The notes under the pieces are model-generated. The model was not told the DNA's origin. It ran no database searches and saw only the letters and a program-made list of their open reading frames with translations. A stretch of 64,000 bases of DNA from Burkholderiales bacterium (GTDB lineage: Bacteria; Pseudomonadota; Gammaproteobacteria; Burkholderiales; SG8-39): positions 3,582 to 67,581 of the forward strand of contig JAHDYJ010000008.1 of assembly GCA_023383795.1 (NCBI GenBank). The letters run 5' to 3'. Made by a program: the position numbers and the translations under genes. The stretch's first letter is position 1. Every line of letters starts with the position of its first letter. Shown piece by piece: positions 2 through 37,899 of the stretch.

Positions 2-1609
2 GACGGACGGTGGCGGGCATTCACGCTCGCGAGCGCGCTCGAGCGCGCCGCGCGCGCCCATCCGCGGCGCGTCTTCCTCGCGGACCGCGACGGACGGCTC
101 ACGTACGCCGAGGTCGATCGGCTCGCCGACCGGCTCGCGGTCGAGCTCGCCGCCTGCGGCCTGCGAGCGCGCGAGATCGCGCTCGTGCAGCTGCCGAACG
201 TGCGCGAGTTCGCGCTCGCCTTCTTCGCGCTCCACAAGCTCGGCGCGATCCCGGTCCTGTGCCTGCCGGCGCACCGGCGCATGGAGATCGCCCACTTCGC
301 CGCGGCGACCGGCGCCGCCGCGCATTTCTTCGCGCCGGGCTTCCGCGGCTTCGACTACGTGGGCATGGCAAGAGAGGTCCAGGCCGAGGCGCCGACGGTT
401 CGCCTGCTCGTCGCGACCGGCAACGGCGCGGAGCCCGGCGTCCGCTATCTCGGCCCCTGGCTCGAGCGCGCGTCCGAGCCGCTCGACCGCGAGGCCGCGC
501 TCGGCCGGCATCGTCCGGACCCGTTCGACGTCGCGTTCATGCTGCTCTCGGGCGGCACGACCGGCACGCCGAAGCTGATCCCGCGCACCCACGCCGATTA
601 CCTCTACAACGCGACCGAATGCGCCCGCGTGCTCGCCTGGGGGCCGGACACCCGGTACATGATCGGCCTGCCCGCCGCGCACAATTTCGCGCTGGGCGCC
701 CCGGGCATGGTGGCGGCGCTTGCCGTCGGCGGCAGCGTCGCGCTCGCGCCGTCCACCGACGCCGACGAGCTGCTCGGGGCGATCGAGCGCGATCGCGCGA
801 CGGTGCTGCCGGTGACCCCGGCGCTGCTGATCCAGCTCCTCGACTGCCCGCGCCGGAGCAAGTACGACCTCGCGTCGCTGCAACAGATCTGCGTGGGCGG
901 GCAGCGCATGCTGCCCGAGCTCTTCGACCGGCTGCTCGCGGCGTTCCCGCACACGGAGCCGATCCACGCGTTCGGCATGGCTGAAGGCCTGACCAACCTG
1001 AGCCGGCCCGACGACCCGCTCGCGCTCCGGCGCGAGACGCAGGGGCGGCCGGTCTCGCCGGCCGACGAGATCCGGATCGTCGACGACGACGGCGCCGACG
1101 TGCCCGCCGGCGCGGTCGGCGAGCTGATCACGCGCGGCCCGTACACGATCCGCGGCTATTACCGCGGCGCCGAGCACGACCGCGCCGCGTTCACCGCCGA
1201 CGGGTACTACCGCACCGGCGATCTCGTCCGCATGCACGCGAGCGGGAACCTGGTCGTCGAGGGGCGCAGGAAGGATCTCATCAACCGCGGCGGCGAGAAG
1301 ATCAGCGCCGAGGAGGTCGAGAACCTGATCCTCGGTCACGAGAAGGTGCAGATGGCCGCCGTCGTGGCGATGCCCGACCCGGTCATGGGCGAGCGCGCCT
1401 GCGCGTTCGTGGTGCCCAAGGAAGGCGCGTCGGTCACGCTGGCCGAGGTCAACGCGTTCCTGCTCGCCAGGCAGATCGCGAAGTTCAAGCTGCCCGAGCG
1501 GCTGGAGGTCGTCCGGGCGTTCCCGTGCACCGCGATGGGCAAGGTCTCGAAGAAGGCGCTGCGCGACGAGATCGCGGCGCGCGTGCGCGCGGAGCACGCC
1601 GGCGGCTGA
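2..1609 (+). CDS. Aryl-acid adenylating enzyme of the EntE/DhbE (2,3-dihydroxybenzoate/salicylate-AMP ligase) type; 5' end cut by window edge
   Basis: The frame of track ORF 185..1609 stays open back to nt 2 (DGRWRAFTLASALERAARAHPRRVFLADRDGRLTYAEVDRLADRLA...). ANL-superfamily motifs LLSGGTTGTPKLIPRTH, YYRTGD, RGGEKISAEEVE and the C-terminal KFKLPERLEVVRAFPCTAMGKVSKK closely resemble EntE/DhbE. Confidence 0.9.
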   Translation, partial: DGRWRAFTLASALERAARAHPRRVFLADRDGRLTYAEVDRLADRLAVELAACGLRAREIALVQLPNVREFALAFFALHKLGAIPVLCLPAHRRMEIAHFAAATGAAAHFFAPGFRGFDYVGMAREVQAEAPTVRLLVATGNGAEPGVRYLGPWLERASEPLDREAALGRHRPDPFDVAFMLLSGGTTGTPKLIPRTHADYLYNATECARVLAWGPDTRYMIGLPAAHNFALGAPGMVAALAVGGSVALAPSTDADELLGAIERDRATVLPVTPALLIQLLDCPRRSKYDLASLQQICVGGQRMLPELFDRLLAAFPHTEPIHAFGMAEGLTNLSRPDDPLALRRETQGRPVSPADEIRIVDDDGADVPAGAVGELITRGPYTIRGYYRGAEHDRAAFTADGYYRTGDLVRMHASGNLVVEGRRKDLINRGGEKISAEEVENLILGHEKVQMAAVVAMPDPVMGERACAFVVPKEGASVTLAEVNAFLLARQIAKFKLPERLEVVRAFPCTAMGKVSKKALRDEIAARVRAEHAGG

Positions 1610-1621: not shown

Positions 1622-2542
1622 TCAGTCGTCGGCGAAGAGCTCGGCGATCTGTCGCCGGAACCAGGCGTGGGCCGGGTCGCGCTGCGCGCGGGCGTGCCAC
1701 TGCTGGGTGATCGTCAGCACCGGCGTCTGGAACGGCAGCGGCTTCACGCCGAGCGTCGTGCGGTCGCCGATCATCGACTTCGCGAGCCGCCCCGGCAGCG
1801 TCAGCAGCAGGTCGGATTCGGCGATGATCGCGTCGAGCCCGAGCGCGTGGCCGGCGATGAAGGTGACGTGGCGCTCCAGCCGCTCGCGCACGAGCGCCTT
1901 GTGCAGCGCGCGGCGCAGCGATGCGTACGTCGCCCCGCCCGGCCGGTAGTCCACGTGGCGCGCCTTGAGGTAGTCGGCCTTGGTGAGGGTCTTCCCGAAC
2001 AGCGGGTGCCTGCGGCGCATCAGGACGACGAAGGTCTCCGAGAAGAGCCGCTGCCGGACGTAGTCGGCGCCCATCGCCGGCCAGTTCCCGATCACGAGGT
2101 CGATCGCGCCCTCGTGCATCGCGCGGCGACCCTCCTCGACCGACGCCTCGATCGTGTCGATGCGCACGTCGGGCGCCGCCGCTGCCAGGTGCTTGAGCAG
2201 GCGCGGCACGAAGATCAGCTGCGCGAGGTCGCTCGCGAGGATGCGGAAGAGGCGGTCCGAGCTTAGCGGCTCGAACCGGCGCGGCGCCTTGATCGCGCCG
2301 TCGATCGCGCTCAGCCCTTCGTCGATCGGGCCGATGATCGACTCGACGAGCGGCGTGGGCAGCATGCCCTCGGCCGACGGCACGAACAGCGGATCGTCGA
2401 GGCGCTCGCGCAGCCGGCGCAGCGCGTTGCTCACCGCCGACTGGGTCATCCCGAGCCGGGCGCCCGCCTTCGACGCGCTGCGCGTGGCGTACACCGTGCG
2501 CAGCACGTGCAGCAGGTTGAGGTCGATGCCGTTGAGGTTCAT
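1622..2542 (-). CDS. LysR-family transcriptional regulator
   Basis: Internal ATG of track ORF 1622..3265 (cat at 2540..2542) gives 306 aa. It starts MNLNGIDLNLLHVLRTVYATRSASKAGARLGMTQSAVSNALRRLRE (LysR wHTH), followed by a LysR substrate-binding domain. The start overlaps the yqeC stop as ATGA. Confidence 0.9.
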   Translation of the reverse strand: MNLNGIDLNLLHVLRTVYATRSASKAGARLGMTQSAVSNALRRLRERLDDPLFVPSAEGMLPTPLVESIIGPIDEGLSAIDGAIKAPRRFEPLSSDRLFRILASDLAQLIFVPRLLKHLAAAAPDVRIDTIEASVEEGRRAMHEGAIDLVIGNWPAMGADYVRQRLFSETFVVLMRRRHPLFGKTLTKADYLKARHVDYRPGGATYASLRRALHKALVRERLERHVTFIAGHALGLDAIIAESDLLLTLPGRLAKSMIGDRTTLGVKPLPFQTPVLTITQQWHARAQRDPAHAWFRRQIAELFADD

Positions 2543-3360
2543 CGGCGTGGGGCCAGGCGTTCGCCGGCGGCGGGCGCATGCGGCGGATCGAACGCCGCCA
2601 GCGCGGCGAGCGCCGGCGCCGGGAGCAGGCAGCCGGCGACGACCCGGTGCAGGGTCGTGCCGCGGGCGGCGGCGATCCGCAGCGCGATACGCAGCGCCGC
2701 GGTCCGGCGGTCCGGCGTGTCGGCGCGATTCAGGAAGAGTACGCGCCGTGCGCGCGCCGGGCAGCCCTTCGTGAGCCCTTCGGGTTCGAGCGCGATCGCG
2801 GCCAGCGACTCCGCGCTGATCGGCGCGCCGGGGGCGAGGCCCGTCCGCTGCGCCCAGATCTCCGGCCGGAACAGGTTGTCCGCCGACAACGGCCGGCCGA
2901 GCCCGTTCAACCCGGCGACCACGATCACCGCGTCGCTCGAGGCGGGAACGACCGGCTCGTGCGCGGCGGGCGCCTTGAGCGGCCTGCGCGCCGAGCCGTC
3001 GGCCTCGACGAGAATGCGGTCGAAGCAGGCCGCCGGCTTCAACCGGTCGACGAGCTCGGGCGCAAGACCGGCGAGCTTCCCGTCCGCGCGGCCGGCGCCC
3101 GCGTAGGCGACCAGCGCGCCGCCGCCCTGCTCGAAAAGACGGCGGGCGTGCGCCAGGAGCTCCTCGGCGCTGCCCGCGGCGACCGTCGGCCACGGGCCGG
3201 CCGCCTCGCTGCGGGCGATCTTCGTGGTGGTCGTGACGAGGACACGCTCGCCCGCGCCCGCCCACTCCCGCGCGAGCGCGAACATCAGCGTCGTCTTGCC
3301 GCCCGCGCCGCAGAGCGCGACCAGGCGCGCGCGCTCGAGACCGAGCGCCGCAGTCAGCAT
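2539..3360 (-). CDS. yqeC: Selenium-dependent Mo-hydroxylase accessory protein, YqeC family (P-loop)
   Basis: 273 aa from the internal ATG at 3360 of track ORF 2539..4128. MLTAALGLERARLVALCGAGGKTTLMFALAREWAGAGERVLVTTTTKI is the characteristic YqeC N-terminus (GxGGKTT P-loop followed by VTTTTK). Confidence 0.85.
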   Translation of the reverse strand: MLTAALGLERARLVALCGAGGKTTLMFALAREWAGAGERVLVTTTTKIARSEAAGPWPTVAAGSAEELLAHARRLFEQGGGALVAYAGAGRADGKLAGLAPELVDRLKPAACFDRILVEADGSARRPLKAPAAHEPVVPASSDAVIVVAGLNGLGRPLSADNLFRPEIWAQRTGLAPGAPISAESLAAIALEPEGLTKGCPARARRVLFLNRADTPDRRTAALRIALRIAAARGTTLHRVVAGCLLPAPALAALAAFDPPHAPAAGERLAPRR

Positions 3361-4238
3361 CGCAGCGTGGCCGGGGACTCGACGCGCACGTCGTTGCAGT
3401 GGCGCATCACGGCCTCCAGCACCGCGCCGGCGATCGCGCGCGCCTTGTCCGAGATCGTGTCGCAGTACTCGCGGCGCCCGCGCGGGTCGATGTCGCCGAT
3501 CTTCAAGCCCGGCACGACCGCCGTGCCGGCGCGGATCAGCCCGCGCAGGACGCCGTCGATCCCGGCCTTCACCGGCTGCCCGGCGACCCGGCCGATGACT
3601 TCCTGCGCATGCACGAGATCGCCGATGGCGCGGTCGGTCTCGAAGGCGCCGGCGGCGGGCGCGCGCAGCACGCGGTCCGCCGCGTGCCCGGCGATCTCGC
3701 CGGGCACGCCGGTGTTCGGCGCGGCGCTGCCGGAGACGATGATGCGCCCGAGGTCGTGGCCGCGATTGGTCTCGACCACGAGATGGCAGTCCGCGCCCGC
3801 GACGAAGCCCGGTCCGAGCGCGATCACCATCGGCGCGTTGTCCTTGCGGGTGCCGGTGTTGCGCTTGGCGAGGATGGCGTCGACGACGACCTCGGGCGCA
3901 AGCCCCGCGATCCGCGCCCAGTCGCCGGTGCGGACGACGGCGATCTCCCGCACGCGCCAGGCGCGCTCGATCTCCTCGCGCGTGCGCGCGGCGCGCGCGC
4001 GCACGCCCTCCACGGACGCGGCGCCCGACTCGAGGGCGGTGCAGAAGGACACCGTCCTCCGCACGCAGAGAGGATTCTCCAGATCGAGCATGCAGATGCG
4101 CCGCAGGTGGGCCATATGGAGCCGCCACGCGACCGCGCTCGCCATCTCGCCGGCGCCCTTGACCAGGATCACCGGCGAGAGCGGCGCGTCGGTCGACGCT
4201 TGCCGCAGCGCAGGTGACATCGTGCGGAGCTCGCCCAT
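3354..4238 (-). CDS. yqeB: Selenium-dependent molybdenum hydroxylase system protein, YqeB/EF2563 family
   Basis: Track ORF 3354..4262. ILVKGAGEMASAVAWRL...VVDAILAKRNTGT...VIALGPGFVAGADCHLVVETNRGHDLGRII...GDIDPRG...ISDKARAIAGAVLEAV matches the YqeB-family pattern from memory. The start is uncertain: ATG at 4238 or 4220, TTG at 4262, none with a strong RBS. Overlaps the yqeC start by 7 nt. Confidence 0.8.
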   Translation of the reverse strand: MGELRTMSPALRQASTDAPLSPVILVKGAGEMASAVAWRLHMAHLRRICMLDLENPLCVRRTVSFCTALESGAASVEGVRARAARTREEIERAWRVREIAVVRTGDWARIAGLAPEVVVDAILAKRNTGTRKDNAPMVIALGPGFVAGADCHLVVETNRGHDLGRIIVSGSAAPNTGVPGEIAGHAADRVLRAPAAGAFETDRAIGDLVHAQEVIGRVAGQPVKAGIDGVLRGLIRAGTAVVPGLKIGDIDPRGRREYCDTISDKARAIAGAVLEAVMRHCNDVRVESPATLRC

Positions 4239-4285
4239 GTGTGGGGCTATAACTCGTCTCAAACTGTGACTACGCAGCCCACGGA

Positions 4286-4320
4286 GGGGATATACAAGGG
4301 GGCTTCCCCTCCTTGTTCGT
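4286..4320. repeat. GC-rich imperfect palindrome GGGGATATACAAGGGGGCTTCCCCTCCTTGTTCGT; a related copy lies at 40173..40204
   Basis: Read directly. Arms ACAAGG(G)GGG / CCCC(T)CCTTGT. Lies in the 130-nt gap between the CoA-ligase stop (4393) and the yqeB start. Aligns with the reverse complement of 40173..40204. Confidence 0.5.
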
Positions 4321-4392
4321 ACGACCGGGGTTCGAGTTGCATGCCGAGTTCGTCCAACGAAGTCCGGGGCGCTCGCATTCCTCAGGCACCTG

Positions 4393-5718
4393 TTACTGCA
4401 GGCGGATGATCCGCTTGGCCTTGCCCTCGACGCGGGGCAGGCTGCCGACGTCGCAGACCTCGACGTCCGGCGTGACCATGATGCGGTACTTGATCGTCTC
4501 GATCAGGAAGTCCCGCGCCGCCGCGATCCGGTCCTGCGGGACGTGCTCGTGCGCCGGCTCGACGCGGACCTTCAGGCGCTCGCCGCTGCCCATGCGCGGG
4601 ACGACCAGCTGGTACTCCTGCGAGAACTCGTCCACCTTGTGCAGCAGGTTCTGGATCTGCGTCGGGAAGATGTTGACGCCGGCGAACTGGAACATGTCGT
4701 CGGTGCGGCCGAGCACGCCGCCGTCGAGGCGCAGGAAGGTGCGCCCGCACTCGCACGGCGCGCGGTTGAAGCGGACGAGGTCGCGCGTGCGGTAGCGGAC
4801 GAGCGGCATGCTCTCGCAGCAGAGATTGGTGAGCACGAGCTCGCCGATCGCGCCGTCGGGGAGCGGGGCGAGCGTCTCCGGATCCAGCACCTCGGCGAGC
4901 AGCATGCTCTCGATCACGTGCGTCCCCTGGTGCCGGACGCACTCGTAACCGAAGTTGGTGATCTCGGTCGAGCCGATGTCGTCGAAGCACTCGGCGCCCC
5001 ACTGGGACTCCAGGGCCTTCTTGGTCGAGAGGACCGCGGCGCCGGGCTCGCCGGCGGCCACGATCTTCGCGATGGACGATCCGGGCAGGTCGATCCCGTT
5101 CTTGCGCGCCGTCTCCGCCAGGTAGAGCAGGTACGAGGGCGTGCCGCACACGACCGTGGCGCCCCAGTCGAGCATCGAGCGCAGGCGATCCTTGGAGCTC
5201 TGGCCGCCGCCCGGAATGACCATCAGCCCGGCCCGCTCCATCGCGGTCTGGAAGCCCCACCAGGCGACGAAGAGGCCGTAGTTGAACGGCACGAACAGCA
5301 CGTCGTCCTCGGTGAGCCCGTAGCCGCAGCGGAAGTGGCTGAACTGCTCGTAGAAGTTCTCGTGCCAGTCCTTGCGGCTCCACATCACGCGCACCGGGCG
5401 GCCGGTGGTGCCGGAGGTCTGGAAGACGCGCACCGCCTCCCGCGGGGTGATGCATGCGAAGTCGCCCCACGGCGGGTGGCGCTCCTGGCTCTCGCGGAGC
5501 TCGTCCTTCTCGGTGAAGGGGATCGCGCGCACGTCGTCGTAGGAACGGATCTCCTCCGGGCGCACGCCGGCGGCGTCGAGCTTGCGGCGGTAGAACGGGC
5601 TGCGCTCGCGGACGTAGGCGAGCTGGTCGCGGAGCTTGCCGAGCTGGAGCTGCGCGAGCTCGTCGCGCGGCATGCGCTCGAGCCGCTCGTTCCAGTAGAA
5701 GACCTGCCCGCAGGTCAT
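4393..5718 (-). CDS. Phenylacetate-CoA ligase family (PaaK-like) adenylate-forming enzyme
   Basis: 441 aa. FQTSGTTGRPVRV (AMP-binding P-loop), the length and the C-terminal LPRVEGKAKRIIR are typical of PaaK/F390-synthetase-type ligases. The start overlaps the upstream Mo-subunit stop as ATGA. Confidence 0.9.
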   Translation of the reverse strand: MTCGQVFYWNERLERMPRDELAQLQLGKLRDQLAYVRERSPFYRRKLDAAGVRPEEIRSYDDVRAIPFTEKDELRESQERHPPWGDFACITPREAVRVFQTSGTTGRPVRVMWSRKDWHENFYEQFSHFRCGYGLTEDDVLFVPFNYGLFVAWWGFQTAMERAGLMVIPGGGQSSKDRLRSMLDWGATVVCGTPSYLLYLAETARKNGIDLPGSSIAKIVAAGEPGAAVLSTKKALESQWGAECFDDIGSTEITNFGYECVRHQGTHVIESMLLAEVLDPETLAPLPDGAIGELVLTNLCCESMPLVRYRTRDLVRFNRAPCECGRTFLRLDGGVLGRTDDMFQFAGVNIFPTQIQNLLHKVDEFSQEYQLVVPRMGSGERLKVRVEPAHEHVPQDRIAAARDFLIETIKYRIMVTPDVEVCDVGSLPRVEGKAKRIIRLQ

Positions 5719-8084
5719 GCGCCGACCTTCTCCTTCGGCTTCGGTTGTTTCGCCTTGAACTCGAGCGCCTTCAGCCCGTACAGGATCCTCTCGGCAGTGA
5801 AGGGCGTGGAGTTCAGACGCACGCCGGTGGCGTCGTACACGGCGTTCGCCATCGCCGCGAGGATGCCGGACACGAGCCCCTCGCCGACCTCCTTGGTGCG
5901 ATAGGGCTGCCCGACGCGGTACTGCTCGGTGATGACGTCGGCGTCCTCGGAGACCGCCATGTTGTGGATGGTCGGCATCCGGTAGTCGAGCCAGTTCGGA
6001 TTCAGCGTGTAGCCGTCCTTGGTCATCACCTCTTCCATGAACGCGTGGCCGAGCGCCATCGAGATCTGGCCGTCGATCTGCCCTTTCACCAGGGCCGGGT
6101 TCACGGGGAAGCCGCAGTCGTGCACGGTGAGTGCTTTCACCAGGCGCGCCTCGCCGGTCTCGATGTCCACCTCGACCTCGGCCACCTGGGCGCTGAAGGC
6201 GTAGTTCTCGGTCCAGCGGCCCTTGGTGGTCGCGAGGCTCGGATGGTTCGGCTCGTCGCGCATCGTGCGCCAGTAGCCCTCGCCGATCACAGTATCGCCG
6301 CGGCGGGTGGCGACGCTCGCGGCGATCACCTCGCGATAGGTCATGCGCGCCGAGGGATCGCGCGTGCTGTAGACGACCTTGTCCTTCACGGCGAGGTCGC
6401 CGACCGGCACGCCGAGCCGCTCAGAGGCCACCGCGACCAGCTTGTCGCGGGCGTTGCCGGCGGCCTGGCGGGCGGCGTTGCCGGTGACGTAGGTCATGCC
6501 GCTGATCCACGCGCCGATGTCCTGCGGCGTGGTGTCGGTGTCCGACGAGACGATCTTCACGTCGTCCATGCCGATCGCGAGCTCCTCGGCGACGATCTGC
6601 GAGATCACGGTCTCCGAGCCCTGCCCGATGTCGATCGCGCCGGTCAGCACCACCGCCGAGCCGTCGTCGTTCATCTTGACGATGACCGCCGAGCCGTTCG
6701 GGTAGATCAGCGTCCCGCCCATGTAGGCGCTGACGCCGATGCCGATGCCGCGGCGGATCGTGCCCTGCGGCGGCGACCGGCGATCGCGGCCGTGCTTCTC
6801 GAGAAAGCCGGACTTCTCGGCGGCCACCTTGATGCAGTCGGCGAGCCCCGCGTTGTGGACGTTGTCGCCGTTCGGCAGCGCCTCCCCCGGCAGGCGCGCG
6901 TTGCGCAGCCGGATCGTGATCGGATCGATGCCGAGCTCCTCGGCGATCCGGTCGAGCTGCGACTCGATCGCGAAGCGGATCTGCGGGGCGCCGTGGCCGC
7001 GCTGGGGCGCGCGCACCGGGTAGTTGGTGTAGACCGAGAAGCCCTCGTAGCGCAGGTTCGGGATGCGGTACGGGATCATGGTGAAGCCCCAGGCGAGGAA
7101 GATCACCACCACGCCGCTGCCGCGGAACCCGCCCGAGTTGTTGATCACGCGGATTTGCTGCGCGACGATGGTGCCGTCCTTCTTGACGCCGGTCTTGATC
7201 TCCATCGCGAGCGGCTGGCCATGGCGGTAGGCCGAGAAGATCTCCTCGCGGGTCGCGACGATCCGCACCGGCCGTCCGGTGATCATCGACAGGCGCGCCG
7301 CGCAGTACTCGTGCGAGTAGAGGTCGATCTTGCCGCCGAACGTGCCGCCGACGTAGGTCTTGTGGATCCGCACCGCCGAGTACGGCAAATCGAGCGTGCG
7401 GGCGAGCTTGGCGCGCTTGACGAACGCCCCCATCGAGGACGTCCAGACGTTCATCTTGCCGCCTTCCCAGTGGGCGAGGGTCACGTGCGGCTCGAGGTAC
7501 CCGTGCGTGCGCAGGTGGCTCTCGAAGCGGTCCTCGCGCACGTAGTCGGACTCGGCGAAGCCGCGTTCGACGTCGCCCCACTCGGTCTCCGACTTGCCGC
7601 CGACGTTCGCGTACGGGTCGGTGACCTTGGGATGGCTGGGATGCACCTCCGGCGCGCCGGGCTTCATCGCCTCGACCGGGTCGAAGACCGCGGGAAGCTC
7701 CTCGTACTCGACTTCGATCAGCTCCACGGCCTTCAGCGCGGTGATCTGGTCGACCGCGGCGACCGCGGCCACCTCCTCGCCGACGTACACCACCTTGCCG
7801 CGCGCCAGCACTTCCTGGTCGGCCGGGTAGCGCGGCGTCTCGACGAAGCCGTGCCTGATCCCCTTGGTGTCGTCGACCGTGATCACCGCCTTGACCCCGG
7901 GCAGCGCTCTTGCGCGCGAGGTGTCGATGCGCGCGATGCGGGCGTGCGGATGCGGGCTGCGCAGGATCCGCCCGGCGAGCGTGCCCGGCAGCTTCACGTC
8001 CTGGGCGTAGACGGCCTTGCCGGTGACCTTGTCCGGGCCGTCCTTGCGCCGCCAGCTCTTGCCGACGTAGTTGAGATCGCTCAT
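5715..8084 (-). CDS. Molybdopterin-binding large subunit of a xanthine-dehydrogenase-family enzyme, 4-hydroxybenzoyl-CoA reductase alpha (HcrA)-like
   Basis: Track ORF 5715..8114. Full-length aldehyde oxidase/XDH a/b-hammerhead plus Mo-binding domains (GKSWRRKDGPDKVTGKAVYAQD..., GGTFGGK, RGHGAPQ, KEVGEG). The ATG at 8084 has the RBS GGAAGG 7-8 nt upstream; the alternative ATG at 8114 lacks one. Confidence 0.9.
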   Translation of the reverse strand: MSDLNYVGKSWRRKDGPDKVTGKAVYAQDVKLPGTLAGRILRSPHPHARIARIDTSRARALPGVKAVITVDDTKGIRHGFVETPRYPADQEVLARGKVVYVGEEVAAVAAVDQITALKAVELIEVEYEELPAVFDPVEAMKPGAPEVHPSHPKVTDPYANVGGKSETEWGDVERGFAESDYVREDRFESHLRTHGYLEPHVTLAHWEGGKMNVWTSSMGAFVKRAKLARTLDLPYSAVRIHKTYVGGTFGGKIDLYSHEYCAARLSMITGRPVRIVATREEIFSAYRHGQPLAMEIKTGVKKDGTIVAQQIRVINNSGGFRGSGVVVIFLAWGFTMIPYRIPNLRYEGFSVYTNYPVRAPQRGHGAPQIRFAIESQLDRIAEELGIDPITIRLRNARLPGEALPNGDNVHNAGLADCIKVAAEKSGFLEKHGRDRRSPPQGTIRRGIGIGVSAYMGGTLIYPNGSAVIVKMNDDGSAVVLTGAIDIGQGSETVISQIVAEELAIGMDDVKIVSSDTDTTPQDIGAWISGMTYVTGNAARQAAGNARDKLVAVASERLGVPVGDLAVKDKVVYSTRDPSARMTYREVIAASVATRRGDTVIGEGYWRTMRDEPNHPSLATTKGRWTENYAFSAQVAEVEVDIETGEARLVKALTVHDCGFPVNPALVKGQIDGQISMALGHAFMEEVMTKDGYTLNPNWLDYRMPTIHNMAVSEDADVITEQYRVGQPYRTKEVGEGLVSGILAAMANAVYDATGVRLNSTPFTAERILYGLKALEFKAKQPKPKEKVGA

Positions 8085-8121
8085 CGCGCTACCTTCCGGT
8101 GTCGTGCGGTCCATGGCGGCG

Positions 8122-8649
8122 TCACTTCATGACCGGCTTCACGCCCTGGCCGGACGCCTGCAGCACGGCGTCGACGATCGCGTTGTAGCCGGTGCACCGG
8201 CAGAGGTTCCCCTCCAGCGCCTTGTTTATCTCCTCGCGCGAGGGCCGCGGGCTGCGCTCGAGCAGCGCGGTGGCCGACATCAGCATGCCCGGGGTGCAGA
8301 ACCCGCACTGGAGCCCGCCCTGGTCGAGGAACGCCTCCTGCAGCGCGCTCAGCTTCTCGCCGTCGGCCAGGCCCTCGACGGTGCGCACCTGCCTGCCGTC
8401 GCACTCGACGGCGAGCGTGATGCAGGCGAGCACCGGCCGGCCGTCGACGAGCACCGTGCAGGCGCCGCAGGTGCCGCACTCGCAGCTCGCCTTGGTGCCG
8501 GTGAGCCCGATCGCGTCGCGGATCGCCTCGACCAGCGTGACCCGCGGCTTGACCGCGACCTCGTGCCACTCGCCGTTCACGCACAGCGAGACGAGCCGCG
8601 CACGCGTCCGCGCCTCGCTGCCGAGACCGCTCTTGGTGACGTCCAGCAT
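8122..8649 (-). CDS. [2Fe-2S]-binding small subunit (HcrC/CoxS-like)
   Basis: Both cluster motifs are present: CECGTCGACTV and CGFCTPG...CRCTGY. The ATG at 8649 is preceded by GAGGAGGG; the track start at 8664 is an alternative. Confidence 0.9.
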   Translation of the reverse strand: MLDVTKSGLGSEARTRARLVSLCVNGEWHEVAVKPRVTLVEAIRDAIGLTGTKASCECGTCGACTVLVDGRPVLACITLAVECDGRQVRTVEGLADGEKLSALQEAFLDQGGLQCGFCTPGMLMSATALLERSPRPSREEINKALEGNLCRCTGYNAIVDAVLQASGQGVKPVMK

Positions 8650-8679
8650 CTGATCCCTCCTCATCGCGTCCGGACCGGC

Positions 8680-9687
8680 TCAGCCGCGCGCCCCGCGCGC
8701 GCGCTCCAGCGCGCGGGCGAGCGTCCGGCGCAGGTGCACCCGGATGTTGTCCATCAGGTAGCGCTTGGTGAAGCCGTGGTGCGGCAGCGGATTCACCTCC
8801 TTTGCCGCCGCGGCGGCCGCCTCCGCGAGGCGTGCGTCCTCGGGCACCGCGCCCGCGAGCACGCGCTCCGCCGCCGACGCCCGCACCGGCCGCTCGCGCA
8901 CCGCGCCGACGGCGATGCGCGCGCCGGCGCAGGTCTTGCCGTCGTCCGCGAGCGCGAGGGTCACCGCGATGACCGCCATCCCGAACTCCAGGCCGCCGCG
9001 CACCGTCGACTTGTGGAACGCCCACCCGGTGCGCGGCGCGGGCGCCGGCACGATCGCCGCGCGAATGAGCTCGGCGCCGTCGAGGGCGAGCGGCGCGAGA
9101 CCGCTTCCGGTGAAGAGCTCCTCGACCGGAATGCGGCGGCCGCCCGCCTCGCTCAGGATCTCGACGTCGGCGCCGAGCGCGACGAGCGCGGGCGCGACGT
9201 CCGACATGTAGACCGACCAGCAGGTGTCGCGCTTGTTGGTCGGGAAGGGATAGCAGCGCTCGCCGCCGAGCTTGTAGCAGCGCGCAGCGAACTGGTAGTC
9301 GTGCCGCTGGTTGAAGTAGAGGCAGCGGCTCTCCTGGCAGAGGTTGCCGCCGAGCGTGCCCATCTCGCGGACCTGGTTGCCGCCCACGGCGCGCGCGCTC
9401 TCGGCGAGCATCGGCGCGCGGGCGTGCACCACGCCCGAGCGCTCGAGATCGGCGAGGCGGGAGAAGGCGTCGACGCGCAGGCTCCCGTCCGGCAGCGTCG
9501 CCGGCGCCTCCGGCGCGATTGCCCCCAGGCTCACGAGCACGCCGGGCTTCACGAGCTCGGCGCGCATGTTGGGCATGAGGTCGGTGCCGCCGGCCAGCAG
9601 GCGCGCGTCCCCGCGCAGGCGCCCGAGCAGCGCCACTGCGTCGGCCGCAGTGTCCGGACGCTCGAGCTCGAAATCGAAGAGGATCAT
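8680..9687 (-). CDS. FAD-binding medium subunit with a Cys-rich insertion (HcrB-like, putative extra [4Fe-4S])
   Basis: The internal ATG at 9687 (RBS GGGGAG) of track ORF 8680..9747 gives MILFDFELERPDT...LLAGGTDLMPNM (FAD_binding_5). The insertion GGNLCQESRCLYFNQRHDYQFAARCYKLGGERCYPFPTNKRDTCW contains 5 Cys, as in 4-hydroxybenzoyl-CoA reductase beta subunits. Confidence 0.85.
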   Translation of the reverse strand: MILFDFELERPDTAADAVALLGRLRGDARLLAGGTDLMPNMRAELVKPGVLVSLGAIAPEAPATLPDGSLRVDAFSRLADLERSGVVHARAPMLAESARAVGGNQVREMGTLGGNLCQESRCLYFNQRHDYQFAARCYKLGGERCYPFPTNKRDTCWSVYMSDVAPALVALGADVEILSEAGGRRIPVEELFTGSGLAPLALDGAELIRAAIVPAPAPRTGWAFHKSTVRGGLEFGMAVIAVTLALADDGKTCAGARIAVGAVRERPVRASAAERVLAGAVPEDARLAEAAAAAAKEVNPLPHHGFTKRYLMDNIRVHLRRTLARALERARGARG

Positions 9688-9811
9688 GCGCGGCTCCCCA
9701 GGGCAATGGCGAGGCCGGATCCGGCCCCGGCGCTCCTGGTCCCGCAACCGCCCGCGCGCCGCCGCGCGCCCGGGCGCGCCGCCGGCGTATCCGCACCGGC
9801 GGCTCCTTGCT

Positions 9812-9834
9812 TATAGTTTGTAGATAAAACTGTA
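9812..9834. promoter_or_regulatory. AT-rich palindromic operator candidate TATAGTTTG-TAGAT-AAAACTGTA upstream of the hcr-like operon
   Basis: Read directly. 20 of 23 positions are identical to 11305..11327. It lies 125 nt upstream of the 9687 start in an otherwise GC-rich spacer. Confidence 0.6.
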
Positions 9835-9956
9835 GGCCGGGGCGCGGGCGACTGTCAATCGTTCTGCGCACGCCACGGCCGATTGCGGCCGGCCGAGCGC
9901 GCGTGATGAATGATTCTCATCCGCCCGGCCCGCGCCGGAGGCCCGGCGCGCACCGC

Positions 9957-10436
9957 TCAGCGGTCGAAGGCGCCGGCGATGCGCTGCAACAGGTCCAAGA
10001 CCTGCTCGCGCTCGCCCGGCTTGAGCACCGCGTCCATGGCCCGCTCCTGCTTCTCGATGCGCCGGGTCACGCGCGCGAGCACCTTGCGCCCCGCCGGCGT
10101 CAGTTGCAGCGCGTGATACCGCCGGTCCTGCTCGCTGCGCTCGGTCCGGATCAGGCCGCGCCCGACGAGGCGCTTCAGCGACAGCGACAAGGTCGCCTTG
10201 TCGAGCCGATAGAGGCGCGCCAGCGTCACCGAGTTGAGGCCCGGGTTCGCCTCGAGCATGGTGAGCAGGCTGAACTCGCCCGGGGTCACCCCGAGATCCC
10301 CGATGGAGCGCGAGATGTCGCGGAAGATGGCCGACTGCGTCTGCCGGACCTGATAACCGATGTAGCCGGGCAGCCTGCCGAAGTCGACCCCGGCGGCGCG
10401 CGCGCCGTTCCTCCTCCTGGAGACGGGATCAGGCAC
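9957..10436 (-). CDS. MarR-family transcriptional regulator
   Basis: 159 aa. TPGEFSLLTMLEANPGLNSVTLARLYRLDKATLSLSLKRLVGRGLIRTERSEQDRRYHALQLTPAGRK is a typical MarR winged HTH. The start overlaps the xdhC end by 8 nt. Confidence 0.9.
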   Translation of the reverse strand: MPDPVSRRRNGARAAGVDFGRLPGYIGYQVRQTQSAIFRDISRSIGDLGVTPGEFSLLTMLEANPGLNSVTLARLYRLDKATLSLSLKRLVGRGLIRTERSEQDRRYHALQLTPAGRKVLARVTRRIEKQERAMDAVLKPGEREQVLDLLQRIAGAFDR

Positions 10437-11220
10437 GGGCGCCCTGCCTGAGCTTCAGGAGCTGGCTCACGATGCCGACCGCGATCTCGCCCGGCGTGTT
10501 GTCGCCGAGCTTCTCGCCGACCGGGCAGACGATGCGGTCGATGAACGACCGCGGGACGCCCGCCTCGGCGAGCTCCCTGCGGACGATGCGCGACTTCGCC
10601 TCGCTGCCGATCAGCCCGAGGTGGGCGATGTCGAGCCCGCGCGCGGCGATCGCCTTCAGGATCGGCAAGTCCGCGCTGTGGCCCACCGTCATGAGCAGCA
10701 CGTCGCCGCGCGGTGCGATGCGGTCGATGCCGTCGACATAGTCGGCCACGCGGACCGCCTCGAGCTTCGCGTTGCGCGGCAGGCGGTCGAGCCATTCGGC
10801 GCGCGTGTCGAGGCAGACGACGCGGCAGTCGAGCTCGACGAGAAAGCGGCAGAGCGCCTGCGCGACGTGCCCGGCGCCGAACACCGCGATGTTCCAGGCG
10901 TGGTCGCGACGGTGCACCTCGAAGTACAGCGCCGCCTCGCCGCCGCAGGTCATCCCGAGGTCGCGCTGCAGATTGACGCGCTCGAAGCGGGTCCGCGCAG
11001 CGGCGCCGTCGGCGAGCAGCGCGCGCGAGCGCTCCTCGCACATGGCCTCGAGCCGGCCGCCGCCGACCGTTCCGTGCGCCAGGCCGTCGGGGGTGAAGAT
11101 CGCGGAGGCGCCGACTACCTGCGGGATGCTGCCGCGCGCGTCCACGATGGTCGCGACGCAGAAGGCCGCGCCCGCCTGCCGCAGCCGCTCGATCTCGCGC
11201 AGAAGATCCTGGTCAAGCAC
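10429..11220 (-). CDS. xdhC: XdhC/CoxI-family Mo-cofactor insertion chaperone
   Basis: 263 aa. N-terminal XdhC_CoxI domain (AFCVATIVDARGSIPQVVGA...GTVGGG) plus a Rossmann-like C-terminal domain (IAVFGAGHVAQAL). Confidence 0.85.
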   Translation of the reverse strand: MLDQDLLREIERLRQAGAAFCVATIVDARGSIPQVVGASAIFTPDGLAHGTVGGGRLEAMCEERSRALLADGAAARTRFERVNLQRDLGMTCGGEAALYFEVHRRDHAWNIAVFGAGHVAQALCRFLVELDCRVVCLDTRAEWLDRLPRNAKLEAVRVADYVDGIDRIAPRGDVLLMTVGHSADLPILKAIAARGLDIAHLGLIGSEAKSRIVRRELAEAGVPRSFIDRIVCPVGEKLGDNTPGEIAVGIVSQLLKLRQGARA

Positions 11221-14121: not shown

Positions 14122-17100
14122 ATGGCGCCGAAGCGAGCACGCGTCGGTGTGGTGGTGTTGGGGGCTTTTTTTCTCGTGGCGCCCTTGGCCCAAGGGCAGA
14201 TCACCACGGACGGCACGCTCGGCCCGGCCGGCGCGCTCGCGGGGCCGCATTACGCGATTCCGGCCGACCTCGGGCGCCAGGCGGGCGCCAACCTCTTCCA
14301 CAGCTTCGGACTCTTCAACCTCGCCACCGGCGAGAGCGCGACCTTCTCCGGCCCGGGCTCGGTCGCAAACATCATTTCGCGGGTCACCGGCGGGCAGGCC
14401 TCTAGCATCGACGGGCGACTCGCCTCGACGATCCCCGGCGCCAATCTCTTCCTGATCAACCCGCGTGGGGTCCTCTTCGGGCCAAACGCGAGCCTGGATC
14501 TCACCGGCTCGTTCAGCGCGTCGACGGCGGACTACCTGCGCTTCGCCGACGGCACGCGCTTCGAGGCGACGGCCACACCGGGGCCGATCCTCACCTCGGC
14601 GCCGCCGGCGGCGTTCGGGTTCCTCGGGCCGACCGGCGCGGTCGCCTTCCAGGGCTCGACGTTCGACCTCGCACCCGGACCGGGGCTCTCGGTCGCGGCC
14701 GGCAGCATCGCCCTGGACGGCGCGCTGCTCCGCACCCGCGCCGCCGACCTCCGGCTCGCGGCGGTGTCCGCGGGCGAGCTCCCGCTGGACGCGACCGCCG
14801 CACCCTCGACCGGCAGCGCGATGGGCGATGTCGGCGTCAGTTTCTCCCAGGTGCGGACGGTGAGCAGCGGCGACCTGCCGCCCGGCCGCCTCGTCATCCG
14901 CGGCGGCCAGCTCACGATCGCCGACTCGGTCGTGCGGGCCACCAACGGCTCTCCGGCGGATGCGCCGCCGGTCGAGCTGCTCGCTTCGGGCGATCTCAGA
15001 TTCTCGGGAGGCCAGTTCCTCGCAAATGCGCAGGGCGCCGGGCGGGGTGCGGACCTCGTCGCGCGCGGCGAGAACGTCACGATTGATCGCGCAGCACTGG
15101 TCCAGGCGTGGTCGACCACCTCGGGAGCCGTCGGCGAGATCGATTTCGAGGCACGTAACGCTCTGCGCATCGTCGCGGCGCCCGACGATCCCGACTACAC
15201 AGCGGTGAACAACGCGGTCTTCGCCGACGGCTCCGGCGGCGCCACGCGCTTGAGCGGCGACACGGTCACGGTCGACGCTGCGATCGTGAACAACGTGACG
15301 TTCGGCGCCGGCAATACCGGCCCGGTCGTCATGCGCGGGCGCGAGGTGATCCTGACCAATGGCGCCTTCGTGCTGAACGAGGTCAAGCCCGACGCCCCGG
15401 GACGTGGCGACGACGTCGACATCGCCGCCACCGAGCGCGTTTTCATCGGCAAGCACGACTGGTGGGATTTCCAGTCGGAGATCGTCACGGTCACGCGCGG
15501 GCCGCAGGACGCCGGCAACGTTCGCGTGGTTGCACCCCTCATCGAGGTCATCGGCGGCACTGTGCACAGCATCACCAACGGCACGGGGAACACCGGGGTG
15601 CTCGAGTTCGTCGGCGACGTCATACGCTTCCTCGGCGGCTACGGCGGCATCGCGTTCGTCGACACGACGTCGGAATGGACCGCCACCGGAAACAGCGGCA
15701 ATATCGACGTGCGGGCGTCGACTTCGTTCGAGATCGGCCGGGGCGACAATCCTGACGGCTGGAGCCGGATGACCACGTCCAGTTTCGGCGCGGGGCGCAG
15801 CGGCGACGTGACCGTGGATTCTCCGCTCGTCACCGTGCGCGGCCTGCAGGCGATCTGGAGCTCCATTTTCGGCACCGGCGACGGCGGCTCGATCCGCATC
15901 CGCGCGCACGACGTGAACGTGTTCGACAACGGCGAGATCCAGACCGGCGTATTCTGGGGCGCCACCGGACGCGGCGGCGACATCGTCATCGAGGGAACGG
16001 GCAGGCTCTACATCTCGGGATTCAATCAGCCGCTGCCGGGCGGAGGCCTGATCACCACGCTGACCGAGTCCCCGGGCCGCGCCGGCGACATACGGATCAG
16101 CATCCCGGTGGTCGAGACCGCATTCGAGACCGGGCCCCGGATCCTCTCCGGCACCGTCGGCGAGGGCGACGCAGGCAACATCGAGATCGCCACCGGACGG
16201 CTGATGAGCCGAGGCGGCGGGATCGAGGCAACGGCGTTCAATTTCTCGTCGGGCAAGGCCGGCGACATCCAGATCGTCGCCTCCGAGGCGATCGAGCTGG
16301 TCGGCCGCCCGTTCTACTGGTGGGAGGGCGTCTTCTCGCGCGCGCAGGGTACGGGCGACGCCGGGAGCATCTCGCTTGCGGCGCCTCGGGTCGTGCTCGA
16401 CGACCAGCGCGTGTGGGCGACCGCCTACTACATCGCCGACGGCGGCCGGATCGACATCGACACGAACGAGCTCATCCTGCGCAACGGCGGGCAGCTCGAT
16501 GCGCGAACGCTGGACGGGTCGAGCGGTGCGGCCGGCTCGGTGCAGGTCCGCGCGCGGGACCGGATCGAGATCACCGGCATGAGCCCGATCGACGCGGCGT
16601 TCAGCGGTATCAACGCCCAGACCGGCGGCTCCGGTCCGAGCGGCGGCATCCGGATCGAGACTGGCGACCTGCTCATCGATCGCGGATTCGTCAAGTCCAC
16701 GGCCAACGGGAGCGGCAACGCAGGCGACATCGACATCACCGCCCGTACCGTGACCCTCGTGAACGGAGGCCGGATCGACGCGAGCGCGGCGCCCGGATCG
16801 AGCGGCGCCGGGGGCAGCATCTCGGTGAACGCAGCCGAATCGATCTACGTCGGCGGTGTGGACCGGTCGCCGATCATCGTCGAGCAGGAACCCGTTCCAG
16901 GCGCCGATGGCGTGAACCAGCGCGGCCGTCCGCAAGGTGCGCTTGCGAGCACCATTACGACGAGCACCGCGGGCAGCGGCGCCGGGGGACGCGTCCTGCT
17001 CGTTGCGCCGCGGATCGACGTAGCCAGCGAAGGTCGCATCGAGGCCACGAGCACCGGCACCGGCAACGCTGGATCGATCGAGCTCGTGGCGCCCGACGCG

Positions 17101-17706: not shown

Positions 17707-17726
17707 CCGCGGCCCATAACAAGAAG

Positions 17727-32469: not shown

Positions 32470-32497
32470 CCGGGCCTGCGGTGCGGGGGACCCCGCG

Positions 32498-33364: not shown

Positions 33365-33387
33365 GTCGCGCGAACCGGCTGCAGCGG

Positions 33388-33880
<493 letters not shown>

Positions 33881-33888
<8 letters not shown>

Positions 33889-36061: not shown

Positions 36062-36086
36062 GCGCGCGCCGCCCCGGCGCGGCAGC

Positions 36087-37394: not shown

Positions 37395-37899
37395 GCCGAT
37401 CCGGCCCTTCCTCCAGCGCTGCGCCGAACCGCCCGGTGATCAGCAGGTACGCCTCGGCGGCGAGCCCGCCCCCGAACCCGATCCAGATCGGCAGCCAGTA
37501 AAGGAACAGCGGGATGCGCAGGTCCATCGTCTCGTCGTCGAAGCGCAGCGCCTCGAGCCCGCTCACCACGATTTGCCAGTCCATCAGCGCGAGGTAGGCG
37601 ATCGTCCCCAGCCCCGCGGCTACGACCAGGAAGCGCAGGACGCGCCGCGGGACGGCCTCGTCGAACAGGCTGATCGCGATGTTCTCTCCGGCGAGGAACA
37701 CCGCCGGCATGGCGAGGAAGACGAGACAGCTGAACGCGAGCAGGACCAGCTCGACGACGCCGAAGATGCGCCACTGCGCGTCGATCGAGCGCAGGCACAC
37801 GTCGGCGACCGTGAGCGCGATCGCAGCGGCGAGGAACAGCGCGGCGACGCTCTCGAAGAGCGCCGCCGCCCGCTCGCGTCCCGAGGCCCGGCCGGCCAT
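37381..37899 (-). CDS. TRAP transporter small permease (DctQ family)
   Basis: 172 aa with four hydrophobic segments, positioned between the DctP and DctM genes. Confidence 0.8.
   Translation of the reverse strand: MAGRASGRERAAALFESVAALFLAAAIALTVADVCLRSIDAQWRIFGVVELVLLAFSCLVFLAMPAVFLAGENIAISLFDEAVPRRVLRFLVVAAGLGTIAYLALMDWQIVVSGLEALRFDDETMDLRIPLFLYWLPIWIGFGGGLAAEAYLLITGRFGAALEEGPDRRDAA

Follow-up and report, generated by a model that had tools for sequence, protein, structure and literature searches.

The locus described here raises the question whether a molybdenum (Mo) enzyme resembling 4-hydroxybenzoyl-CoA reductase (HBCR) may depend on a selenium-containing cofactor in a proteobacterium, as the adjacent genes yqeB and yqeC might suggest. 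It lies at one end of a 64 kb stretch of Burkholderiales DNA, hereafter referred to as the window.

Gene content and organization

Gene calls in this region rest on GC3 frame analysis in combination with NCBIfam and Pfam. All genes listed in an earlier sequence-only reading were recovered with the strand and order claimed, i.e., xdhC, marR, the genes of a FAD subunit, a 2x[2Fe-2S] subunit and a Mo subunit, a PaaK-like ligase gene, yqeB, yqeC, and lysR, all on the minus strand. The block begins with xdhC (10429..11220; Pfam XdhC_CoxI and XdhC_C; TIGR02964 158 bits, cut-off 161.6), upstream of which a promoter-like site (11350-11322) and a terminator-like hairpin (11383-11356) are situated. An overlap of 8 nt connects it to a marR-family regulator gene (9957..10436; Pfam MarR/MarR_2). 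The spacer between marR and the FAD subunit gene contains a sigma-70-like promoter site, TTGACA-18-TACAGT (9829..9858, minus strand), with 10/12 matches to the consensus; three promoter-like sites occur in the region compared to 0.3 expected, all being consensus matches only.

The HcrB-like FAD subunit (8680..9687, 335 aa; Pfam FAD_binding_5 and CO_deh_flav_C) starts with an ATG at 9687 preceded by the RBS GGGGAG, and is followed by the HcrC-like 2x[2Fe-2S] subunit (8122..8664; Pfam Fer2 and Fer2_2; TIGR03193 192 bits, cut-off 258) and the HcrA-like Mo-MCD subunit (5715..8114, 799 aa; Pfam Ald_Xan_dh_C, MoCoBD_1, and MoCoBD_2). At the junction to the PaaK-like aryl-acid CoA ligase gene (4393..5718; AMP-binding and AMP-binding_C_2; TIGR02155 281 bits, cut-off 646) the ATGA overlap claimed before is present. 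The spacer between ligase gene and yqeB (4239..4392, minus strand) carries a short GC hairpin (GGGGAAGCCCC) and, behind it, a T-rich tail; an Rfam search of it returned no family and no Moco riboswitch. According to the called start it measures 154 nt, and the 130 nt given previously apply only if the TTG at 4262 is the start codon of yqeB (3354..4238). The 7-nt overlap of yqeB with yqeC (2539..3360) and the ATGA coupling of the latter to a lysR-family regulator gene (1622..2542; HTH_1 and LysR_substrate) are as described earlier. A DhbE/EntE-like aryl-acid ligase gene (2..1609; TIGR02275 505 bits, cut-off 724) is located on the plus strand and truncated at the window edge. Since all three enzyme subunits and both ligases stay below the curated NCBIfam cut-offs of their name-giving families, “-like” is the correct wording in each case.

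With only 43 bits, the lysR gene product stays far below the cut-off of 250 of the model “selenium metabolism-associated LysR”. No homologue was found in 84 compared loci and the gene is present only in loci L088 and L089; it is thus specific to the window's own lineage.

Relation to canonical HBCR

HBCR models are the best or near-best curated-family matches for all three subunits, with TIGR03194 as the best one for the Mo subunit (642 bits, cut-off 995) and TIGR03195 reaching 208 bits (cut-off 405) for the FAD subunit. Among solved structures, the Mo subunit matches 1rm6_A with 413 bits (next best 276) and the FAD subunit 1rm6_B with 160 bits (next best 90), with the Cys loop aligned. The Cys-rich loop noticed from the sequence can indeed be aligned to the [4Fe-4S] loop in Thauera HcrB, with 5/5 Cys retained; these are also kept in 34/35 subclade I and 32-33/34 subclade II FAD homologues (see the next section for the subclades).

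With HcrCAB/HbaBCD of Thauera aromatica and Rhodopseudomonas palustris (PDB 1rm6, 1sb3), the window enzyme thus shares the Mo-MCD subunit, the 2x[2Fe-2S] subunit, and the FAD subunit with a Cys-rich [4Fe-4S] loop, as well as an aryl-acid CoA ligase, a MarR regulator, and xdhC in the locus. In contrast, identity is only ~40%, none of the three subunits reaches its equivalog cut-off, and the gene order is B-C-A instead of C-A-B. Furthermore, the isolate Rhodospirillaceae bacterium LM-1 possesses both canonical HcrCAB and the B-C-A enzyme, which are therefore paralogues, probably with different substrates. Due to the scores below cut-off, the B-C-A order, and the occurrence of both types in one isolate, sequence comparison indicates that the Mo enzyme and canonical HcrCAB are not orthologous; the HBCR-like architecture described initially stands. 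Against the window Mo subunit, at least 150 clusters (50% identity) of uncharacterised XO-family proteins equal or surpass canonical HcrA in score. Canonical HcrCAB loci contain xdhC only, without yqeB, yqeC, and selD. As canonical HcrCAB copes with XdhC alone, the additional genes are no general requirement of HBCR-type enzymes.

Conservation of the locus

The window enzyme belongs to a large conserved clade (61-95% identity) known almost only from MAGs. Subclade I comprises Proteobacteria and Acidobacteria (at least 75% identity) and subclade II Desulfobacterota (61-70% identity); loci with adequate flanks numbered 20 and 21, respectively. Obligately anaerobic aromatic degraders are the hosts of half the clade.

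Both yqeB and yqeC were observed in all 20 subclade I loci with adequate flanks, so their linkage to the hcr-like operon, for which co-occurrence had been proposed as a check, is no local accident. In subclade I, xdhC adjoins the enzyme in 16/20 loci and marR is kept in 17/20. A CoA ligase is encoded in 19/20 subclade I and 16/21 subclade II loci, and a PaaK-like gene directly follows the Mo subunit gene in 26/39 and 27/41 loci, respectively. Subclade II loci keep the ligase, but no maturation genes were found nearby. The Mo subunits of both subclades differ at only one diagnostic position, and, as far as its residues can be read, the enzyme sequence itself carries no selenium signal.

Predicted function and proposed selenium dependence

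We presume, with a probability of about one half, that the locus encodes an aryl-CoA module with an HBCR-type reductive enzyme and a selenium-dependent Mo cofactor. xdhC-marR, the FAD-FeS-Mo-ligase genes, and yqeB-yqeC would form a self-contained module feeding an aromatic acid into central metabolism. The PaaK-like ligase would convert an aromatic carboxylate (a substituted benzoate being the likeliest) to its CoA thioester, and the three-subunit Mo-flavo-iron-sulfur enzyme would then alter a ring substituent. Most likely, it would use low-potential electrons to eliminate a hydroxyl or comparable group reductively, in the manner of 4-hydroxybenzoyl-CoA reductase. Its Mo cofactor would be matured by XdhC together with YqeB and YqeC, which in this clade probably install a selenophosphate-derived selenium ligand (Mo=Se for Mo=S), like in clostridial nicotinate and xanthine dehydrogenases.

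As claimed before, YqeB (TIGR03309 326 bits, cut-off 220, E 2e-97) and YqeC (TIGR03172 181 bits, cut-off 73, E 2e-53; Pfam YqeC) are true family members, both scoring above the curated NCBIfam cut-offs. The AF2 model of YqeB shows a Rossmann-like and a barrel-sandwich domain, and its homologues are named [quoted passage not shown] by NCBI, while a Walker-A-like motif, GAGGKTT, can be read from the YqeC sequence. [quoted passage not shown] The accepted marker, however, is given by SelD, YqeB, and YqeC together (PMC9312934). Neither selD nor mocA was found within the 64 kb window or within 10 kb in the 12 Burkholderiales relatives, so one leg of this marker is missing here.

In 8/20 subclade I loci selD is located at a distance of at most 10 kb, in case of L017, L018, L019, L032, L035, L036, and L083 inside or directly beside the cluster, whereas a single-copy gene is expected by chance inside a 20-kb interval in well under 1% of loci. 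Two distinct types occur among the linked selD genes, both above the SelD cut-offs, which suggests independent recruitment. When YqeB is taken as the starting point, the subfamily it belongs to here (at least 61% identity) adjoins this enzyme clade, and one additional locus has selD-xdhC-yqeB.

These observations have to be weighed against the possibility, doubtful in our view, that the same enzyme and ligase work with an ordinary sulfido Mo cofactor, YqeB and YqeC being selenium-independent helpers of MCD maturation or insertion beside XdhC. The lack of selD in the window and near the enzyme in its Burkholderiales relatives would be explained in this way, as would the subclade II enzymes, which hardly differ at conserved positions but are devoid of adjacent yqeB and yqeC. 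Comparative genomics has cautioned that YqeB or YqeC alone may serve selenium-unrelated processes (PMC5029168, PMC2432076), and yqeC deletion in C. difficile remained without phenotype (PMC11448449). Against an ordinary sulfido cofactor stand, however, selD near the enzyme in 8/20 sister loci (in or beside the cluster in most) in two unrelated forms, a YqeB score above the cut-off of a model with members reported only from selD-positive genomes, and the sufficiency of XdhC alone for canonical HcrCAB. For the clade as a whole, selenium dependence thus has strong comparative support at the sequence level. Since its subclade I relatives always occur with yqeB and yqeC and often with selD, the window enzyme is probably an uncharacterised, selenium-dependent HBCR relative in aromatic-acid breakdown.

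Related systems and direction of the reaction

We know of no report of selenium in Thauera HBCR. The view that HBCR genes in combination with yqeB and yqeC had not been described was too strong, as a published precedent exists in Geobacter metallireducens, and the combination is not wholly new. There, Gmet_2134-2136 (HBCR) are followed by xdhC, yqeB (HP1 = pcmV), yqeC (HP2 = pcmW), and a mobA-like gene (PMC2432076 Table 1, PMC2700814 Table 1, PMC1924859). This pcmRST-UVWX cluster resembles the window locus in its HBCR-type enzyme with the Mo subunit last of three and in XdhC, YqeB, and YqeC, and includes a MobA/MocA-like gene (pcmX); compared by published coordinates only, it differs by xdhC instead of a CoA ligase directly after the Mo subunit. 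The products of pcmV and pcmW were termed “possible Mo cofactor biosynthesis proteins” and the reductase was not tied to selenium (PMC2432076, PMC2700814, PMC1924859); our literature search found no paper calling the G. metallireducens HBCR selenium-dependent.

The selenium-dependent Mo hydroxylases (Eubacterium barkeri nicotinate dehydrogenase 3hrd, clostridial xanthine dehydrogenase and purine hydroxylase, E. faecalis EF2570) are likewise XO-family enzymes with yqeB and yqeC, accompanied by mocA/ygfJ and selD (PMC2276186, PMC2432076). Unlike the window enzyme, they are oxidative, act on free N-heterocycles, and occur in Firmicutes and enterobacteria. The window enzyme scores low on their models (Se_dep_XDH 327, cut-off 830; 3hrd 229 + 182 bits), probably acts on a CoA thioester, has the [4Fe-4S] FAD loop, and belongs to environmental Proteobacteria and Acidobacteria. 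Urolithin C 9-dehydroxylase (Ucdh) of Enterocloster, the second XO-family enzyme known to dehydroxylate reductively, has HBCR as its closest characterised relative and needs XdhC for good activity; selenium and yqeB are both unmentioned in the Ucdh paper (bioRxiv 10.1101/2025.01.17.632430). Ucdh differs by its free phenol substrate, the use of NADH, and the lack of a CoA ligase.

That the enzyme is instead oxidative, a hydroxylase (dehydrogenase) of aryl- or heteroaryl-CoA working like 2-furoyl-CoA or nicotinate dehydrogenase, with or without selenium dependence, is regarded as unlikely, even though the nearest sequence cluster is not canonical HcrA. To our knowledge, nearly all XO-family enzymes, and all Mo enzymes biochemically proven to be selenium-dependent, are hydroxylases. 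E. coli PaoABC, which is oxidative, also has a [4Fe-4S] cluster in its FAD subunit PaoB; therefore, the Cys loop is no proof of reductive chemistry. HBCR and Ucdh are the only known reductive members (bioRxiv 10.1101/2025.01.17.632430). On the other hand, HBCR is the best solved-structure match for Mo and FAD subunits, the HcrB-type loop is conserved across the clade, and the half of the clade residing in obligately anaerobic aromatic degraders shows no downstream ring-hydroxylation pathway nearby, all of which argues for the reductive direction.

Neighbouring Mo enzymes and substrate

The EntE-like ligase was rejected as a member of the operon. Its gene terminates a second, convergent operon for a Mo enzyme, the remainder of which lies just beyond the window edge; in L088, the corresponding ligase (98% identity) is preceded by genes for a FAD subunit (303 aa, no Cys loop), an FeS subunit, and a second Mo subunit (Mo2, 771 aa). 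The EntE-like ligase is therefore uninformative on the substrate of the B-C-A enzyme. L088 and, in part, L078 are the only loci in which this second operon was seen. Two CoxLMS-like enzymes are encoded at 32-36 kb and 43-47 kb. In total, three XO-family enzymes are encoded in the window, compared to a single copy each of yqeB, yqeC, and xdhC. That yqeB and yqeC serve another client (a CoxLMS-like enzyme or the second, HcrA-like Mo enzyme beyond the left window edge), with an incidental HBCR-like neighbourhood, would fit this sharing, the position of yqeB-yqeC-lysR between two convergent Mo-enzyme/ligase operons, and the hairpin spacer parting yqeB from the ligase gene, but is highly improbable given the B-C-A enzyme with yqeB and yqeC in 20/20 loci of several phyla, the restriction of the second operon, and a YqeB identity that follows B-C-A enzyme identity.

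With regard to the presumed aryl-CoA module, phenylacetate-CoA ligases 4r1l and 2y27 are the best PDB matches of the PaaK-like ligase. Sister loci without a PaaK-like gene encode a benzoate-CoA ligase family member instead (TIGR02262 396 bits, cut-off 375), with a 3-hydroxybenzoate-CoA ligase as best match, which points to a substituted benzoate as substrate. Hydroxyphenylacetyl-CoA, suggested earlier, is chemically unlikely for an enzyme of the HBCR type. The loci are flanked by Liv-type ABC transporters and dedicated regulators, usually without further catabolic enzymes; one acidobacterial locus contains a BcrC-like gene with benzoyl-CoA reductase subunit C as best match (288, cut-off 421).

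Gene organization of the Mo enzyme cluster

As the window has a G+C content of approximately 72%, genes were called by third-position GC, and names were assigned from NCBIfam and Pfam. In order of transcription on the minus strand, xdhC (10429-11220) and marR (9957-10436) are followed by the genes of the FAD subunit (8680-9687; ATG start, RBS GGGGAG), the 2x[2Fe-2S] subunit (8122-8664), and the Mo subunit (5715-8114), the latter with an ATGA overlap to a PaaK-like ligase gene (4393-5718). A spacer of 154 nt (4239-4392) separates this ligase gene from yqeB (3354-4238), yqeC (2539-3360; 7-nt overlap with yqeB), and lysR (1622-2542; ATGA overlap with yqeC), and a DhbE/EntE-like ligase gene on the plus strand (2-1609) is convergent with lysR. 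Gene content, strand, order, and overlaps had all been described correctly in the sequence-only reading.

Promoter-like sites, recognized by sequence match only, are situated 5' of xdhC and of the FAD subunit gene. Just 3' of the latter site, at 9800-9835, the imperfect inverted repeat TTATCTACAAACTATAA represents a candidate MarR operator. Neither a Moco riboswitch nor any other Rfam RNA element was found in the spacers of the block. An assignment of the LysR protein as a “selenium metabolism-associated LysR” was rejected, since it scores 43 bits (cut-off 250) and the gene is not conserved in the other loci.

Affiliation of the Mo enzyme

The three-subunit Mo, 2x[2Fe-2S], and FAD architecture of 4-hydroxybenzoyl-CoA reductase (HBCR) is present in the Pfam domains, and the HBCR models of NCBIfam are the best or near-best match for all three subunits. 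Among solved structures, Thauera HBCR is the top match of the Mo subunit (413 bits; runner-up 276) and of the FAD subunit (160 bits; runner-up 90). Furthermore, the Cys-rich insertion of the FAD subunit aligns with the [4Fe-4S] loop of 1rm6_B, with all five Cys kept. However, the scores stay below the equivalog cut-offs for HcrA (TIGR03194, 642 bits, cut-off 995), HcrB (TIGR03195, 208 bits, cut-off 405), and HcrC (TIGR03193, 192 bits, cut-off 258). The gene order also differs, since the canonical operon is arranged hcrC-hcrA-hcrB, whereas that of the window enzyme is FAD-FeS-Mo (B-C-A). The three canonical HcrCAB loci examined, of Paramagnetospirillum, Sedimenticola, and Rhodospirillaceae bacterium LM-1, are C-A-B and lack yqeB and yqeC; they are followed by xdhC in two cases and by an unannotated 311-aa gene in the third. 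The earlier designation as HBCR-like thus stands for the architecture, but does not extend to orthology with HcrABC.

LM-1 (GCA_902725215; L032, L085) is a cultured magnetotactic isolate with two enzyme sets. One comprises canonical hcrCAB, an adjoining near-PaaK ligase gene (TIGR02155, 625 bits, cut-off 646), and phenylglyoxylate oxidoreductase-like genes; the second set consists of the B-C-A enzyme, a PaaK-like ligase, mocA, yqeB, yqeC, xdhC, and selD. As both types occur in LM-1, canonical and B-C-A enzymes are paralogues, and the isolate is a ready experimental system with both enzyme types. The clade enzyme, labelled in part “4-hydroxybenzoyl-CoA reductase” by JGI annotation, is a distinct paralogue.

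The HcrB-type loop, together with the occurrence of half the clade in anaerobic hosts, leads us to infer that the window-type enzyme would act in the reductive direction. Since E. coli PaoB, part of an oxidative enzyme, likewise carries a [4Fe-4S] cluster, the loop is not a proof of this direction.

Distribution and microsynteny of the clade

Homologues of the Mo subunit number in the thousands, of which the best 120 share 70-95% identity with it and are almost exclusively metagenomic. A library clustered at 50% identity contains a single entry for the clade (1166 bits), with the next clusters at 802 and approximately 650 bits. Since canonical HcrA is absent from the best 150 representatives matching the window Mo subunit, the clade branches separately within an extensive, uncharacterised group of “HcrA-like” proteins.

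A scan at one genome per species yielded at least 80 loci, whose neighbours were determined by local tblastn and clustering. Adequate flanks were available for 20 loci of subclade I, which includes the window enzyme, and 21 loci of subclade II. Subclade I (at least 75% identity to the window Mo subunit) occurs in Burkholderiales, Rhodospirillales, Xanthobacteraceae, Rhodobacteraceae, one gammaproteobacterium, and one acidobacterium; subclade II (61-70%) is found in Desulfobacula, Desulfatiglandales, Desulfomonilaceae, Syntrophales, and similar hosts. In subclade I, besides yqeB and yqeC, each of which was detected in all 20 loci, xdhC (16/20), marR (17/20), a mocA-like gene (13/20), and a CoA ligase gene (19/20) are associated with the enzyme, and selD is located within 10 kb in 8 of the 20. 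Except for the CoA ligase gene (16/21, PaaK-like), none of these genes was observed in the 21 subclade II loci, selD again being counted within 10 kb; a PAS histidine kinase, a sigma-54 response regulator, and a Liv-type ABC transporter are encoded there instead.

An alignment of the Mo subunits of both subclades revealed a single discriminating column, residue 274 (approximately 7293-7295 in the window), which is Arg in subclade I and Leu in subclade II; canonical HcrA has Leu as well. No signature of selenium use was found in the Mo subunit when the yqeBC-linked subclade I was compared with subclade II, which lacks yqeBC. Since the Mo subunits differ at only one diagnostic column, both subclades probably catalyse identical chemistry and share their mode of maturation, the maturation genes of the Desulfobacterota presumably being located elsewhere in the genome.

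Association with selenium-cofactor genes

The YqeB and YqeC families have been suggested to mark selenium-dependent Mo hydroxylases (PMC2276186, PMC2432076). As presumed in the sequence-only reading, the window proteins fall inside these families, with 326 bits for YqeB (TIGR03309, cut-off 220) and 181 bits for YqeC (TIGR03172, cut-off 73). The XO-family Mo enzyme genes are situated directly upstream of yqeB-yqeC on the same strand, and this linkage is kept in all 20 subclade I loci with adequate flanks. In a scan from the YqeB side, YqeBs at least 61% identical to that of the window adjoin the B-C-A enzyme clade, more distant ones adjoin other XO-family enzymes, and one further locus with selD-xdhC-yqeB was detected. 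YqeB homologues in MAGs already carry the name [quoted passage not shown] from the NCBI pipeline.

In most of the eight selD-linked loci, selD is located inside or directly beside the cluster. The order is xdhC-selD-marR-FAD-FeS-Mo in loci L017 and L083, while in L036 and in L032 of LM-1 the cluster ends with xdhC-selD, preceded by yqeB-yqeC. A divergent selD-xdhC pair occurs in L035, and in L018 and L019 selD is found with yqeB on a divergent arm. In case of L031, selD is situated approximately 8 kb upstream, with unrelated genes in between. Two different SelD types are present among the clade loci, both above the SelD cut-offs.

No selD was found in the 64-kb window, nor within 10 kb of the locus in any of the 12 Burkholderiales relatives; contigs of the closest relatives (L054 and L088) were covered to 10 kb on either side. 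These relatives and the window organism may carry selD elsewhere in the genome. A mocA/YgfJ gene (TIGR03310) is likewise absent from the 64-kb window, and the one MocA homologue scored from a sister locus reaches 156 bits (cut-off 186).

Taken from gene neighbourhoods, guilt-by-association argues strongly for selenium-dependent maturation of the clade, although the window itself lacks the third leg, selD. Tentatively, at a probability of roughly one in three, we propose that the HBCR-type aryl-CoA reductases of an entire clade would use a Mo=Se cofactor, fitted by XdhC, YqeB, and YqeC from selenophosphate made by SelD; such a clade would be widespread among environmental Alpha-, Beta-, and Gammaproteobacteria and Acidobacteria, and probably represented in Desulfobacterota and Geobacter as well.

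Neither YqeB nor YqeC gave sequence matches to solved structures. In an AF2 model of YqeB (pLDDT 84), a Rossmann-like N-terminal domain is joined to a C-terminal barrel-sandwich domain resembling biotinyl/lipoyl carriers. Due to the fact that its matches in the PDB are at domain level only, with no match over the whole chain, the model yields no mechanism. Conservation of Cys49, Cys66, and Cys259 of YqeB extends even to the selD-linked LM-1 homologue.

Precedent in Geobacter metallireducens

The sequence-only reading knew of no description of an HBCR-like aryl-CoA reductase in a GC-rich proteobacterium that may depend on the Se-type cofactor; this claim of novelty is overstated. Zhang et al. 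2008 (PMC2432076, Table 1) list a single G. metallireducens operon with a Mo subunit (2402117-2404423), XdhC, HP1/YqeB, HP2/YqeC, and a MobA-related gene, and Gmet_2134-2136 were identified as HBCR by Butler et al. 2007 (PMC1924859). These two papers and that of Aklujkar et al. (PMC2700814) are consistent in their coordinates and locus tags. Since the three together place both genes after the HBCR genes, the adjacency is already published. No paper treating an HBCR-type enzyme as selenium-dependent emerged from full-text searches of the literature. The G. metallireducens sequences are not among the 80 loci listed or the ten best representative clusters.

Second operon and substrate

On metagenome contig L088 of a very close relative, whose ligase is 98% identical to that encoded at 2-1609 of the window, a second Mo-enzyme operon (L088:12630-18067) is situated immediately left of window position 1, convergent on lysR-yqeC-yqeB. 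It encodes a FAD subunit of 303 aa without Cys loop, a FeS subunit, the HcrA-like Mo2 (771 aa; 708 bits against TIGR03194; sharing 42% identity with the first Mo subunit), and, as its last gene product, the DhbE-like ligase. The truncated ligase copy in the window scores 505 bits and the full-length L088 orthologue 529 bits, both below the TIGR02275 cut-off of 724. The second enzyme may be an oxidative aryl-CoA dehydrogenase and is possibly a further client of YqeB/YqeC, though conservation of this pairing does not extend to other loci. Beyond the operon, L088 carries an EthD-family gene and ABC-transporter genes. Use of the EntE-like ligase to judge the substrate of the B-C-A enzyme was rejected: it belongs to the operon of another enzyme and is therefore uninformative in this respect.

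The PaaK-like ligase is not PaaK (281 bits against TIGR02155, cut-off 646). Loci without a PaaK-like gene harbour instead a ligase gene of the benzoate-CoA ligase type (396 bits, above the family cut-off of 375) with 3-hydroxybenzoate-CoA ligase as best match. A BcrC-like gene in one acidobacterial locus matches benzoyl-CoA reductase subunit C best, though below cut-off. Judged from this replacement ligase and the BcrC-like gene, the substrate is most likely a substituted benzoate. In HBCR chemistry, the substituent must be conjugated to the thioester; thus 4-hydroxyphenylacetyl-CoA is unlikely, hydroxyphenylacetyl-CoA having been named earlier as a possibility. As the conserved unit of transporter, regulator, ligase, and enzyme usually comes without further catabolic genes, it would fit a peripheral step by which a single aromatic acid enters a central CoA-thioester pathway.

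Possible implications

To our knowledge, only a handful of selenium-cofactor Mo enzymes were studied biochemically, all of them purine or nicotinate hydroxylases from Firmicutes, and we know of no established route of selenium insertion into Mo enzymes. If the proposed Mo=Se cofactor is confirmed, the clade would provide the first selenium-cofactor enzyme acting reductively on CoA thioesters, and the selenium trait would extend to this chemistry, to soil, groundwater, and marine habitats, and to other phyla. Anaerobic breakdown of phenolic or similar aromatic acids would depend on trace selenium, tying aromatic-compound degradation to selenium supply. Two organisms would become new experimental systems for the maturation pathway: G. 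metallireducens, which has the pcm cluster and is known for HBCR activity, and the LM-1 isolate. The finding also marks out a large clade of HBCR-like paralogues that is in part annotated as HBCR.

Other regions of the window

Two more XO-family enzymes of the CoxLMS type are encoded at 32498-36061 (plus strand) and 43269-46957 (minus strand). At 726 aa, the Mo subunit encoded at 33881-36061 is short, and models matched it in two pieces. A cytosine-deaminase-like amidohydrolase (31357-32469), a TRAP transporter (36087-38958), and an AtzD/barbiturase-type ring-opening amidohydrolase (39016-40104) are found in the same region together with hydrolases and NitT/TauT-type ABC transporters, so that 31357-46957 looks like a catabolic island for N-heterocycles. 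Unrelated to the Mo enzyme, a giant protein of the filamentous-haemagglutinin type (TPS domain) is encoded beside an unannotated 567-aa protein at 14149-19466, and a second, unannotated protein of approximately 1800 aa at 57740-63145.
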